Assembly (NCBI GenBank): GCA_016200785.1
Contig: JACQED010000321.1
Location: forward strand, 1 to 10,263
Direction of reading: 5' to 3'
Source: Chloroflexota bacterium
GTDB lineage: Bacteria > Chloroflexota > Anaerolineae > Anaerolineales > JACQED01
DNA: 10,263 bases
Shown: one piece after another, positions 1 through 4,860 of the stretch
Numbering within the stretch: the stretch's first letter is position 1
Layout: the number at the start of each line of letters is the position of its first letter
Translations under genes and position numbers: made by a program
Notes under the pieces: model-generated
The model's input: only the letters and a program-made list of their open reading frames with translations
Told to the model about the DNA's origin: nothing
Databases searched by the model: none

Positions 1-319
1 ACGGCAGGCGATAGTGAAGCCCCGGCGCGGCGCGAGGCTCGACCACCGCGCCAAAGCGCCGCACGACCGCCGCTTCGCCGGGGTCAACCACGTATACGCC
101 CGACAGCAGGTAAGCGAGGACGGCCAGCGTAAACAGCCACCCCAGGTTGCGGCGCGAGAACAAGCCGCCGACCGCAACGCGGAGGTCGGCGAGCGGAGAA
201 ACGCCTTCGCCGGCGAGCCATCGCAGGCTGGCGCGGATTGCGTCGAGCGTGCCGCGTGCTTGTCCCGGCGGGCGGTCGGGCGCGGGAGGCGGTGTCGAGT
301 CAGTCGTCATCGGGCGCAT
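1..319 (-). CDS. hflK: HflK-like SPFH/band-7 membrane protein, N-terminal part only (gene continues past left edge of window)
   Basis: Absent from the ORF track because it is edge-truncated. Minus-strand translation from ATG 319..317 (in-frame alternative ATG 310..308) gives MRPMTTDSTPPPAPDRPPGQARGTLDAIRASLRWLAGEGVSPLADLRVAVGGLFSRRNLGWLFTLAVLAYLLSGVYVVDPGEAAVVRRFGAVVEPRAAPGLHYRLP... This is one TM helix followed by the start of an SPFH domain. The segment VVDPGEAAVVRRFG..AAPGLHYRLP closely matches the SPFH start of the 513-aa protein at 1897..3438 (IEPGEIGVVRRFGRVIDANAAPGLHYRVPWP). The start codon overlaps the hflC stop (TGATG). Confidence 0.7.
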   Translation of the reverse strand, partial: MRPMTTDSTPPPAPDRPPGQARGTLDAIRASLRWLAGEGVSPLADLRVAVGGLFSRRNLGWLFTLAVLAYLLSGVYVVDPGEAAVVRRFGAVVEPRAAPGLHYRLP

Positions 320-1230
320 CAGGGAGCAGGCGTCGGCGCGGGCGTCGCGGCGGCGACGTTCGCCGGGTTCAGGTATTTCAACAGTTCAGAGTCGGACGGC
401 AGGATGAGCGTCGTGTTCTGATCCAAGATCGTTTCGTACGACTGCAAGGTGCGGAGGAAGCGATAGAACTCCGGGTCTTTCTGGAATGCGGCGGCGTAGA
501 TGGCGATGGCCTCCGCGTCGGCCTTGCCGCGGGTCTCGGCGGCCTGTTGATTCGCGTCGGCGAGAATCTGCGCCCTCTGCGCTTCGGCGGCGGCGCGAAT
601 CTTCGCGGCCTGCTCGGTGCCCTCGGAGCGGAACTGACGCGCGATGGATTCGCGCTCGGCGCGCATTCGCTGGAAAACGCTGGCGAGATTGGCCTGCGGG
701 AAAGTGAGCGTCTTGAGGCGCACGTCGGTGACGACGAAACCGTACTGCGTGGTGCGATCCGCCGCGGCCTGCGTTACGCGCGTGATCGTGTCGGGCAGTT
801 TCATTTGCGCCGTGTCAATGGTGACGAGTTGTCCGAGTTCCACTTGCCCGAGGGCGACGCCGAGTTCCGATGCGACGATGTCGGCCAGCCGCGTTTCCGC
901 GCCCGACGAATCGCGGACGGTCTTGAGAAAGGCGAGCGCGTCGGTGACTTTCCACGTCGCGTAAGCCTCGACGACGATGTTCTTCTTGTCGGCGGTCAGG
1001 AACTCGGTCTGCGGCAGGCTGTAGACTTGGAGTTGGGTATTGAGGCGCACGACGCTCTGGATCGGGTCGGGCAGTTTGGCGTACAGGCCGGGCGCGGCGA
1101 TCACGCGCACCGGCTCGCCGAACTGAGTGACGACGGCGGCCTCCGTCGCGTCCACCTGAAAGAAAACGAGATTGGCGGCGAGGAAGCCGAGAGCGGCAAG
1201 GCCGAGAAGGACGTTACGGGCAAGTTTCAT
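319..1230 (-). CDS. hflC: HflC-like SPFH/band-7 protein (FtsH protease modulator family)
   Basis: 303-aa ORF with an N-terminal signal-anchor TM (LLGLAALGFLAANLVFF), then VVTQFGEPVRV...LPDPIQSVVRL...FLTADKKNIVVEAYATWKV, which is the typical HflC SPFH core. A coiled-coil Ala/Gln-rich region (AAEAQRAQILADANQQAAETRGKADAEA) and a Pro/Ala tail follow. GAGGA RBS lies 9 nt upstream of the ATG. It sits next to HflK-like genes. Confidence 0.85.
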   Translation of the reverse strand: MKLARNVLLGLAALGFLAANLVFFQVDATEAAVVTQFGEPVRVIAAPGLYAKLPDPIQSVVRLNTQLQVYSLPQTEFLTADKKNIVVEAYATWKVTDALAFLKTVRDSSGAETRLADIVASELGVALGQVELGQLVTIDTAQMKLPDTITRVTQAAADRTTQYGFVVTDVRLKTLTFPQANLASVFQRMRAERESIARQFRSEGTEQAAKIRAAAEAQRAQILADANQQAAETRGKADAEAIAIYAAAFQKDPEFYRFLRTLQSYETILDQNTTLILPSDSELLKYLNPANVAAATPAPTPAP

Positions 1231-1258
1231 GAGTGTAGGTTCCTCACTGAAAAACCGT

Positions 1259-1333
1259 TACCACGAAGACACAAGGACACGAAGAACGCCAAGAGAAACT
1301 TGGTGGCCTTCGTGCCTTCGTGGCTTCGTGGTA
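1259..1333 (-). promoter_or_regulatory. Large imperfect palindrome built from three direct 8-9 nt CACGAAG(G/A) repeats on each arm, followed on the sense (minus) RNA by a U5 tract. Candidate intra-operon attenuator/terminator or protein-binding repeat element upstream of hflC.
   Basis: Plus strand 1260-1285 TACCACGAAGACACAAGGACACGAAG pairs with 1307-1334 CCTTCGTGCCTTCGTGGCTTCGTGGTAG. That is about 24 bp of pairing with two mismatches and one bulge. The loop holds a nested CCAAG/CTTGG mini-stem (1289-1303). On the minus RNA the hairpin is followed by AACGGUUUUUC, then the GAGGA RBS and the hflC ATG. Confidence 0.5.
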
Positions 1334-3438: not shown

Positions 3439-4055
3439 TCGGCCTGGCTGCCCAGAGGCGCGTCATAGAGTCGGGCATAGATCGCCCCACCCGCCTGAAG
3501 ATCGCTTTTCATTAAGTTCACTCTGTCAACCCTGACAATCCCCAATTCGCCGGTCTTCGTCGCCTGCACGATCTCTCCGATCTGTTTGGCGACCGGCCCG
3601 TGGACGTCGCGGCCCACGCGCCCGAGCGTGAGGTGAGGATTGAAGCCCCGCTCGCCGGCCTCGCGCGGATATCCGAGGCGGGCGGTGCCGGCCTCGATAG
3701 CCCTCTGCAATCGCTCCAGCGCGCCCGCCGGATCGCGCACGCCGACCCACACGACGCGCGGCTGTCGCGCGTTGGGGAAGCAGCCGAGGTCGCCGGCGGA
3801 GCACTCGAACGGCGCGACAATCTGCGCCGCCGAGGCGATGATTGACTGGAGCGGGCCGAGTTGCGAGTGCGGGGTATCGCCGAGGAATTTCAATGTGAGG
3901 TGAATCCCCTCAGCCCGCACCCAGCGCACCGCGCGCGCGGGGAGCGCCATGTCGAGGCGGGTCATCACGTCGGACAGTTGAGCGCACAGCGCAGGCGGCA
4001 GTTCGATAGCGATAAACGTGCGGAGTGTCGCTGGGGCGGCCAAGGGGTAACTCAA
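3435..4055 (-). CDS. thpR: RNA 2',3'-cyclic phosphodiesterase, 2H phosphoesterase superfamily (ThpR/LigT family)
   Basis: 206-aa ORF with the two diagnostic H-x-T/S-x motifs: HLTLKFLG and HLTLGRVG. Length and spacing are typical for LigT/ThpR. An apparent TTG start overlaps the stop of the upstream hydrolase gene (TTGA). Confidence 0.8.
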   Translation of the reverse strand: MSYPLAAPATLRTFIAIELPPALCAQLSDVMTRLDMALPARAVRWVRAEGIHLTLKFLGDTPHSQLGPLQSIIASAAQIVAPFECSAGDLGCFPNARQPRVVWVGVRDPAGALERLQRAIEAGTARLGYPREAGERGFNPHLTLGRVGRDVHGPVAKQIGEIVQATKTGELGIVRVDRVNLMKSDLQAGGAIYARLYDAPLGSQAE

Positions 4056-4840
4056 GCGGGAGCAGCGAGAAACGACGACAACAGCGAGTTGAACTCGGCG
4101 GCTTTGTCGTCAACGGGCGAATGGCCGGTCGGCATCACGACCAACTGCGCGTCCGGAACGCGCTCGGCGGCGAGGCGACCCTCACGCGGCGACACGACCA
4201 GATCGCGCGCGCCCACGACGACGAGTGAAGGCGCGGCGATCTGCGGCAACCTCGACGTCGTATCGTAGCCCGTGAGCGCGCGAAGCCCGCCCAGCGCCGA
4301 CTCGATGGTCGCCTTGGTCAAATCCTGCGGGTTGCGCCCCACCTGTGCCGCCAGCAATCGCCCGAAGGGGCTTTTGACCACGACCGGCCACACCTGCATC
4401 GTCAGCGAGAGCAAAGGCCGGTCGAAGCCGCGATTGATCAGTCGGTGCACTTGCAGGCGGGTGCGCCCGGTGACAACCGGGTTGACGACGACGAGTCTCT
4501 GAACGAAGTCGCGATGCGTCGCGGCCAGGTCGAGCGCGATCATGCCACCCATCGAATGCCCGACCACGTGCGCCCGCTCGATGCCGGCTTCTCGCGCGAA
4601 GGCACGCACATAGGCAGTGAAGTTGGGGACGGTGTACCAGCCGTTCGCCGGCTTGTCCGAGTCGCCGAAACCGGCGAGGTCTATCGCCCAACAGCGGAAA
4701 TGCGGCGCGAGAAACTCCATCGCGCCCTGCCACATGCGGCAGGAACTTGCCCAACCGTGAATGAACAAAACGTCCGGGCCGGTTCCGCTGGCAAGGTAGT
4801 GGAGATTGAGGTCCTGAACGCGAAGCGTTTCCGTCTGCAT
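4052..4840 (-). CDS. alpha/beta-fold hydrolase (esterase/lipase family; substrate unknown)
   Basis: 262-aa ORF. HGW oxyanion region (VLFIHGWASS), nucleophile elbow GHSMGG, later acidic residue (GARDLVV) and His (PTGHSP), consistent with a Ser-Asp-His triad. First gene of the minus-strand operon, with no SD in front of the ATG. Confidence 0.8.
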   Translation of the reverse strand: MQTETLRVQDLNLHYLASGTGPDVLFIHGWASSCRMWQGAMEFLAPHFRCWAIDLAGFGDSDKPANGWYTVPNFTAYVRAFAREAGIERAHVVGHSMGGMIALDLAATHRDFVQRLVVVNPVVTGRTRLQVHRLINRGFDRPLLSLTMQVWPVVVKSPFGRLLAAQVGRNPQDLTKATIESALGGLRALTGYDTTSRLPQIAAPSLVVVGARDLVVSPREGRLAAERVPDAQLVVMPTGHSPVDDKAAEFNSLLSSFLAAPA

Positions 4841-4860
4841 CCAAAAAGATTATATCATAT
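4841..4860 (-). promoter_or_regulatory. Candidate extended -10 promoter (TGaTATAAT) giving a leaderless or near-leaderless transcript for the hydrolase-thpR-SPFH operon
   Basis: Minus-strand reading: ATATGATATAATCTTTTTGGATG. TGnTATAAT ends 8 nt before the ATG at 4840. No SD and no good -35. This is the AT-richest spot in the window. Confidence 0.4.

Follow-up and report, generated by a model that had tools for sequence, protein, structure and literature searches.

A conserved hflK-hflC-hflK cassette encoding a CDF::HflK fusion lies beside an unrelated hydrolase-ThpR pair on a Chloroflexota contig

Contig JACQED010000321.1 of a Chloroflexota bacterium (NCBI GenBank assembly GCA_016200785.1), analyzed here in full as a window of 10,263 bp, carries six consecutive minus-strand genes between positions 1 and 4860. 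Our analysis indicates that this region consists of two neighboring modules: module A, which encodes an alpha/beta-fold hydrolase (ABH) and a ThpR/LigT-type RNA 2',3'-cyclic phosphodiesterase; and module B, the first three genes of a conserved cassette encoding K1 (a CDF transporter domain fused to HflK, CDF::HflK), HflC, and K2 (a second HflK), interrupted by an orphan open reading frame (ORF) of 185 codons (unk185). The best explanation, to which we assign a probability of about 0.6, is that these modules are unrelated and that the cassette is horizontally mobile and encodes a metal-stress-linked cage of the HflK/HflC type with a covalently tethered exporter.

The six genes were called from the list of ORFs and from hidden Markov model (HMM) scans against Pfam and NCBIfam, and K2 reaches the end of the contig. 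An exact-protein look-up with HflC of the window, aimed at extending the contig, gave no record. To place them in context, fusion loci were collected by scanning GTDB (one genome per species) with an alignment of 21 fusion proteins, which gave 45 loci; seven further loci were obtained by exact-protein look-up and one from a plasmid record, for a total of about 50. All proteins of the window were searched against these loci by tblastn, with the neighborhood taken as the surrounding 10 kb, and a reverse survey covered 56 metagenomic ThpR loci (32-56% identity).

In every locus long enough to be informative, be it from Anaerolineae, Rhizobiales, or Rhodobacterales, the genes of K1, HflC, and K2 occur in the same order and on the same strand. 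HflC orthologs (63-84% identity) follow K1 in each of these loci, and K2 orthologs (44-70% identity; 368-377 amino acids at full length) occupy the corresponding position in about 45 loci. The initial annotation had identified the genes of this region correctly, the ORFs having HMM support, and the non-canonical hflK(CDF fusion)-hflC-hflK order that it described is real and corresponds to a deeply conserved core of the related loci. HflC of the window has a single N-terminal transmembrane (TM) helix, an SPFH domain and a coiled coil, and its gene is flanked on both sides by HflK-type genes. Truncated by the contig end, the K2 fragment begins with a cytoplasmic tail bearing an SPLADLR motif, continues through a TM helix and breaks off early in the SPFH domain; its 106 amino acids are too short to be scored by the TIGR01933 hflK model, for which full-length orthologs reach 216-219 bits. 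The SPFH start motif of the two HflK-like proteins, first described as near-identical, is identical at 24 of 37 positions.

A fourth gene was found directly after K2 in all loci that extend far enough, the exception being locus L039, in which it lies directly upstream of K1. Its product is a peptidylprolyl isomerase (PPIase) of 690-790 amino acids that contains two parvulin domains and a single TM helix, and whose relatives in the PDB are PrsA/HP0175-like. For the window, the gene would be expected past position 1, off the end of the contig and outside the reach of the initial annotation. The N-terminus of the cassette PPIase is a conserved cytoplasmic peptide of about 18 residues (MAEGWKQVWEDIVNALR in L048 and MAQGWSQVWADLLASLR in L046); next come a long Pro/Glu tail of low complexity and the TM helix (gene at 11712-14081 in L048 and 13610-15688 in L046). 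It is possible that this peptide and the conserved cytoplasmic ESPLADLR sequence of K2 are docking peptides.

The cassette genes are tightly spaced. Over 40-47 loci, the median gaps are 31 nt between K1 and HflC, 5 nt between HflC and K2 (often a 4-nt overlap), and 2 nt between K2 and the PPIase. The K1-HflC junction is the sole loose one and takes unrelated inserts, including a zinc-ribbon-like 186 amino acid gene in L051, stretches of about 390 nt in L006 and L007, 212 nt in L039 and, in the window, 670 nt made up of unk185 and a hairpin. The initial annotation had listed unk185 as an unrelated membrane protein; one TM helix is indeed predicted, and the ORF corresponds to an orphan insertion that is absent from the other loci. 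It appears coding, with a GC content at third codon positions (GC3) of 0.75 and a host-like, frame-specific codon usage, and its overall GC content is lower (0.59). Among 5.8 billion proteins, the only homolog of unk185 was itself, and a weak match to DUF6174 stayed below threshold (21.4 bits against 23.8). A relationship with inserts found elsewhere was considered and rejected, as no homology was detected with the 186 amino acid product of L051, the 176 amino acid zinc-ribbon-like product of L049, or the 161 and 167 amino acid products of L110 and L116. Judging from the sequence comparison, unk185 and the hairpin were probably acquired locally between K1 and hflC.

The same comparison separates module A from module B. 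Homologs of ThpR, ABH, and unk185 were found within 10 kb in none of the approximately 50 CDF::HflK fusion loci, no SPFH gene was present in any of the 56 ThpR loci, and the six-gene order is conserved in neither set. ThpR itself passes its equivalog cutoff and contains both HxT motifs (IHLTL and PHLTL) in its translation; no NCBIfam equivalog was detected at cutoff for ABH. In two of the 56 ThpR loci (the short contigs L066 and L108), ABH lies directly upstream of ThpR in a tight pair and no SPFH genes are present, so ABH-ThpR can be viewed as a small separate module. The initial annotation had proposed a functional link of the 2H phosphoesterase and the esterase with the SPFH scaffold, and had suggested comparing the neighborhoods of fusion and thpR orthologs; that comparison found thpR and the hydrolase absent elsewhere, the outcome it had named as refuting its reading. 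The position of ThpR and the hydrolase beside the SPFH genes thus appears to be an accidental adjacency. The start codon of K1 lies within the stop codon of ThpR, which suggests capture of the cassette behind ThpR. The ThpR/hydrolase association is incidental, and carrying it forward as a pathway would be unwarranted.

It should be noted that the arrangement in the window itself could suggest that the six genes work as a unit, with the phosphoesterase and the esterase acting alongside the SPFH scaffold and with expression from one leaderless promoter at a fixed stoichiometry. All six genes lie on a single strand, and stop/start overlaps, claimed for five successive junctions, are present at four of the five: TTGA between ABH and ThpR (4055-4052, where the TTG is merely the first possible start of ThpR), ATGA between ThpR and K1 (3438-3435), ATGA between K1 and unk185 (1900-1897), and TGATG between HflC and K2 (321-317). 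The fifth junction, between unk185 and hflC, is a gap of 112 nt (1342-1231) that contains the hairpin. Overlaps of four bases are a usual feature of compact operons and in themselves unremarkable. In addition, a TGaTATAAT sequence ends 8 nt before the ATG of ABH at 4840. This candidate element is compatible with a leaderless or near-leaderless mRNA; it was not reported by the consensus promoter scan because it lacks a -35 element at 16-18 nt. The same scan found no minus-strand promoter-like site inside the cluster, and co-transcription in this one organism is therefore plausible. As a functional unit, however, the six-gene set is contradicted by synteny on both sides (ThpR, ABH, and unk185 are missing from the fusion loci, and SPFH genes from the ThpR loci) and by the ABH-ThpR pairs that stand alone in L066 and L108. 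Moreover, the ThpR family acts on cytoplasmic RNA ends, whereas the SPFH domains are predicted to face outwards. Taken together, we regard a single six-gene functional unit as highly improbable.

The hairpin between unk185 and hflC argues in the same direction. Its arms (1259-1293 and 1299-1333) form the longest inverted repeat of the window, and its predicted fold (-53.5 kcal/mol, z = -6.0) is the strongest of the window. Six nucleotides past the hairpin lies a UUUUU run, followed by the GAGGA ribosome-binding site of hflC. The hairpin is a candidate terminator, attenuator or RNA-stability element that may have been brought in with the insertion. A stable hairpin with a U-run could end or attenuate transcription at this point, which makes it uncertain that all six genes share one transcript. 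No Rfam match was found for 1259-1333. An integron attC site was also considered and dropped, as no R'/R'' core motifs were seen by eye, a formal test not having been run. The arms are built of CACGAAG(G/C)-like octamer repeats, of which the window holds no further copy; a dispersed REP-like element would be one possibility. The features of region 1-4860 are listed in Table 1.

Table 1. Genes and sequence features of region 1-4860 of the window, with the supporting evidence.
Feature	Position	Strand	Evidence or remarks
ABH, alpha/beta-fold hydrolase, 262 aa	4052..4840	-	PF00561, E 1.8e-31; GHSMGG nucleophile elbow
ThpR/LigT-type RNA 2',3'-cyclic phosphodiesterase, 206 aa	3435..4055	-	TIGR02258, 134.8 bits (cutoff 65.7); PF02834
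K1, CDF::HflK, 513 aa	1897..3438	-	PF01545 at aa 8-198 and PF01145 at aa 241-414
Orphan 185-aa ORF (unk185)	1343..1900	-	One N-terminal TM helix predicted; 5 Cys
HflC, 303 aa	319..1230	-	TIGR01932, 194.1 bits (cutoff 134.4)
K2, N-terminal 106 aa of second HflK	1..319 (codons 319-2)	-	Reading frame open to the contig end
Candidate extended -10 element, TGaTATAAT	4849..4857	-	Read from the sequence
Imperfect hairpin, 35-nt arms and 5-nt loop	1259..1333	-	Inverted-repeat search and folding
Codon 40 of K1 (CAA, Gln), in TM2	3319..3321	-	120-member alignment

The fusion protein K1 passed the cutoffs of the hflK model and of the Pfam Cation_efflux domain. It scored 230.6 bits with the TIGR01933 hflK model (cutoff 159.4) and 93.4 bits with PF01545 (cutoff 26.6), whose profile is matched over positions 1-196 of 198. 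In the AlphaFold2 model, the CDF part comprises six TM helices (amino acids 1-200; nt 3438-2839), and is followed, after a short basic cytoplasmic linker, by a seventh helix (TM7; amino acids 214-241; nt 2799-2716) and by the SPFH domain and a coiled coil with three long helices (amino acids 242-490; nt 2715-1969). No PF16916 match was found for the C-terminal (ZT_dimer) domain of CDF proteins, which is replaced in K1 by TM7 and HflK. The C-terminal half aligns to residues 82-345 of E. coli HflK (E 1e-48, PDB sequences), and HflK chains are the top Foldseek matches of the K1 model; the N-terminal half has a weak match to the transmembrane domain of FieF/YiiP (3H90 and 2QFI, E 1.5e-4). The topology was derived from hydropathy and from the AlphaFold2 model. 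The arrangement of six plus one TM helices, with an even number of helices in the CDF part and a positively charged linker, would put the SPFH domain on the outer side of the membrane, like that of HflK.

Both domains are present in more than 120 full-length relatives. Among 120 members, the mean pairwise identity is 0.70 for the CDF half and 0.64 for the SPFH half, and 62 of the 200 columns of the CDF half are at least 95% identical. The four metal-site residues are nearly invariant (H40 in 119/120, D44 in 120/120, H147 in 120/120, and D151 in 118/120 members). At the sequence level, these values show strong purifying selection on the CDF half, the HxxxD/HxxxD metal site included. With conservation of the CDF half on a par with that of the SPFH half, and with a nearly invariant site, the data argue against a vestigial anchor. 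The window protein is the one member with Gln in place of His at position 40, the first HxxxD position, and this H40Q change is its only non-conservative change at columns that are at least 97% conserved. The corresponding codon, CAA, is a rare A-ending codon in the K1 gene, which has a GC3 of 0.83. H40Q could represent a recent inactivating or specificity-changing mutation, or a consensus error of the metagenome-assembled genome.

The cassette was found in Anaerolineae/Chloroflexota and in alphaproteobacteria (Rhizobiales and Rhodobacterales), with 55-60% identity between the two phyla. Of the 45 loci with enough flanking sequence, 36 have genes for an OmpR-type response regulator and a histidine kinase upstream of K1, mostly in the same orientation and 200-400 nt away, sometimes divergent; in NCBIfam, the two proteins match cztR_silR_copR and cztS_silS_copS best, in each case below the cutoff. 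Neighbors among the fusion loci include P1B-ATPase (16), PCuAC (24), SCO1 (19), and YHS (15) genes. In Aquibium oceanicum B7, the cassette is carried by a 166-kb conjugative plasmid (NZ_CP018172.1) in the order response regulator-histidine kinase ... hflK-hflC-hflK-PPIase-P-type ATPase-PCuAC-SCO-DsbB-thioredoxin ... CopD, CopC. Rhizobium metallidurans DSM 26575, Aminobacter aganoensis DSM 7051, and Nitratireductor indicus C115 are further culturable bacteria that carry it. From this distribution, the cassette appears to be both conserved and horizontally mobile. In the window, K1 lies directly behind ThpR, and both the usual regulator and the copper-gene context are missing; this copy of the cassette has lost its regulator context.

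The fusion of HflK with a transporter is not limited to CDF proteins. An HMMER search was performed against 1.84 billion representatives (50% identity), and the best 150 were classified: 65 correspond to CDF::HflK, eight to P1B-type ATPase::HflK, and four to ArsP_1 permease::HflK. Within these best 150, identity of the CDF::HflK clusters goes down to about 30%, and many have 550-620 amino acids. The P1B::HflK representative P0252 passed both TIGR01525 (587 bits) and TIGR01933 (226 bits) and has a CPC motif. Four loci were looked up, namely L112 (a distant CDF fusion), L110 and L116 (P1B), and L113 (ArsP). In all four, the fusion is followed by two Band_7 genes with tight or overlapping junctions, and NCBIfam identified this pair as HflC then HflK in L110 and L112. 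Because the distant CDF, the P1B, and the ArsP fusions keep the same partners, [exporter::HflK]-HflC-HflK can be considered the deep core of the system, and on these domain assignments three classes of metal(loid) exporter have been joined to it.

The fusion loci span 67-4938 in L110, 8001-12870 in L116, and 1054-5273 in L113. In L110 and L116, the P1B trio is followed by a gene for a TM-anchored protein of 161-167 amino acids; the two proteins are 34% identical and have no Pfam family on record. The ArsP::HflK loci have an extra stand-alone Band_7 gene (3090-4022 in L114; 2623-3555 in L115) and a gene for a ZIP-family metal transporter just upstream.

An ordinary housekeeping hflKC locus with a duplicated hflK has also to be considered, in which the CDF-like N-terminus would be a degenerate multi-pass anchor with no metal role. 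Public annotation is in line with this, as PGAP names the proteins plainly HflK, HflC, HflK, and peptidylprolyl isomerase; the CDF C-terminal domain is missing from the fusion, its score with the TIGR01297 CDF model (75.9 bits) is below the cutoff of 82.35, and the window protein has lost the first metal-site histidine. Nevertheless, a degenerate anchor does not fit with a CDF half that is conserved like the SPFH half and whose four site residues are 98-100% invariant, nor a housekeeping locus with a copy on a conjugative plasmid within a copper island, with 55-60% identity across two phyla, or with two further classes of metal(loid) exporter fused likewise to HflK. We therefore consider a housekeeping locus of this kind very unlikely.

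Under the reading that we prefer, a tethered exporter in a metal-stress-linked cage, K1, HflC, and K2 would co-assemble into a ring or cage of the HflK/HflC type on the outer face of the cytoplasmic membrane, with alternating subunits, as homology to E. coli HflK/HflC suggests. HflC would pair with both types of HflK. The unfused K2 would fill the remaining HflK positions and so determine how many exporters a cage carries; an unfused HflK may always be present because a bulky exporter, and above all an entire P-type ATPase, cannot be accommodated at every HflK position. A few metal exporters would thereby be fixed inside the SPFH microdomain or at its fence, where their activity or turnover would be controlled, probably through an FtsH encoded elsewhere. 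In the subfamily of the window, exporter activity or turnover may be coupled to the anchored PPIase, which would fold or repair envelope proteins damaged during metal stress. Metal induction of the cassette is supported by the two-component regulator and by the island context. More broadly, exporter::HflK-HflC-HflK trios may constitute widespread, so far unrecognised SPFH cages with a "hard-wired client," in which a metal(loid) exporter of one of three independent classes (CDF, P1B-ATPase, ArsP-type permease) is tethered to HflK and unfused HflK sets the number of exporters per cage; this generalization is tentative, and we hold it somewhat below even odds. If true, a client encoded in the scaffold would allow a direct test of what the cage does: protection, gated FtsH proteolysis, or tuning of activity.

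Two other roles for the fused exporter domain were weighed against this proposal. It could be a sensor or adaptor that reports the metal load to the cage, with metal occupancy switching the FtsH-dependent degradation of membrane proteins or of the exporter. HflK/HflC proteins are known as the gatekeeper of FtsH access to membrane substrates (PMC13097134), and a conserved metal site together with the loss of the regulatory CDF C-terminal domain is compatible with a new mode of coupling. A pure sensor, however, hardly explains why a complete P1B-ATPase, with its ATPase domains, is fused likewise, and no ftsH gene was seen adjoining the cassette in the neighborhoods examined; we consider a sensor unlikely. 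The missing ftsH gene would be expected if the SPFH microdomain merely clusters or tunes the exporter, in the way that stomatin-type proteins act on channels and transporters, with no protease involved. Stomatin, flotillin, and prohibitin form SPFH cages of similar structure, and PDB 9zd2 shows stomatin bound to aquaporin-1. On the other hand, all three proteins score as HflK/HflC equivalogs, rather than as stomatin or QmcA, and the E. coli HflK/HflC subfamily occurs in complex with FtsH (PDB 7vhp, 7wi3, and 9cz2), which makes a protease-free scaffold improbable.

Several points weigh against the tethered-exporter cage itself. The absence of an adjoining ftsH gene applies to it as well, and the participation of K1, K2, and HflC in one cage, the involvement of FtsH, and the metal transported are all matters that we infer. 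Equal co-translation of K1, HflC, and K2 would not yield the 1:1 ratio of HflK to HflC in the E. coli cage. With Gln at the first metal-site position, K1 of the window may not transport. CDF proteins normally dimerize in part through their C-terminal domain, which is missing in K1, and the AlphaFold2 model of K1 is of moderate quality only (pLDDT 67.9). Regarding the metal link, nine of the 45 loci, like the window, lack the regulator, and "heavy-metal type" denotes the best match of the two-component proteins and not membership, because both fall below the NCBIfam cutoffs. Finally, no PPIase gene accompanies the trios of the distant CDF, P1B, and ArsP fusions, so that the PPIase link is limited to the subfamily of the window.

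Beyond the cluster, the divergent intergenic region holds what resembles a small self-contained transcription unit (4866-5095, plus strand; fold z = -4.3). It comprises a perfect TTGACA-16-TATAAT promoter (4866-4893), a 15-codon ORF with a strong Shine-Dalgarno sequence (ATG at 4989 to TAG at 5036), a GC-rich hairpin downstream of it, and then a terminator-like hairpin with a T-run (5063-5083). The unit has no Rfam match; it may be a small RNA, encode a leader peptide, or act in cis on the DUF4956 gene at 5144. The 10-mer TTGACAATCC occurs on the plus strand at 4866-4875 and 5101-5110, and forms the -35 region of both plus-strand promoter-like sites, which match the consensus at 12/12 and 11/12 positions; it could be a shared operator or a coincidence. 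The remainder of the window (5144-10238) encodes a DUF4956 membrane protein, an AIR-synthase-related protein, a phosphofructokinase, and an 819 amino acid GAFx3-PAS-adenylate/guanylate cyclase, none of which recurs in the related loci; these genes are unrelated to the cassette. PADLOC defense models gave no match among seven proteins tested, and a search of the whole window with Rfam at the gathering threshold, like one of 4841-5143 by E-value, returned nothing credible.

SPFH proteins (HflK/HflC, prohibitins, stomatins, and flotillins) form membrane cages in all domains of life, and the effect of these cages on the proteins they enclose is debated. Here, a presumed client, a metal exporter, has been fused to a cage subunit at least three times, each time together with HflC and an extra HflK. 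The frequent location of the cassette in mobile copper/heavy-metal islands points to a link between metal efflux and quality control of the SPFH/FtsH type. Our analysis also flags a family that current pipelines label merely as "HflK." The component families are known, and the architecture is apparently undescribed: a full-text search, with most subscription journals outside its coverage, found no paper on exporter::HflK fusions or on the cassette, and a 2009 survey of SPFH proteins treats hflK-hflC (its SPFH3a/b) as a pair and leaves a cation transporter unmentioned.

Comparison with known systems shows which parts of the cassette are familiar. E. coli hflKC sits in an hfq-hflX-hflKC housekeeping context, whereas the cassette appears mobile, is plasmid-borne in one case and lies in a metal island. 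K1 matches the TM helix, SPFH1/2 domains, and coiled coils of the E. coli HflK/HflC-FtsH structures (PDB 7VHP, 7WI3, and 9CZ1/2), and K1, K2 orthologs, and HflC pass the hflK/hflC equivalog cutoffs, with hflK preceding hflC as in E. coli. In contrast to that pair, the cassette has three SPFH genes (K-C-K) rather than two, the cytoplasmic N-terminal tail of K1 is replaced by the six-helix CDF domain, and a PPIase gene is attached. With the CDF proteins (YiiP/FieF, CzcD, and ZnT), the K1 family shares the full-length Cation_efflux transmembrane domain and the HxxxD motifs in TM2 and TM5, as in Zn-type CDF proteins (in CDF transporters, (H/D)xxxD in TM2 and HxxxD in TM5 form the transport site); it differs from them in that a linker, a seventh TM helix, and an extracytoplasmic HflK stand in place of the cytoplasmic ZT_dimer domain, and K1 of the window has QxxxD in TM2. 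The cassette PPIase resembles the PpiD/PrsA/SurA parvulins in its N-terminal TM anchor and extracytoplasmic parvulin domains, but it has two parvulin domains, a Pro/Glu-rich cytoplasmic N-terminal tail and a genetic tie to the HflK/HflC trio. Finally, stomatin-type SPFH proteins, as in the stomatin-aquaporin-1 complex (PDB 9ZD2), likewise pair an SPFH oligomer with a transport protein; there the association is non-covalent and the SPFH domain is cytoplasmic, whereas in the cassette the transporter is part of the same polypeptide and an outward-facing SPFH domain is predicted.

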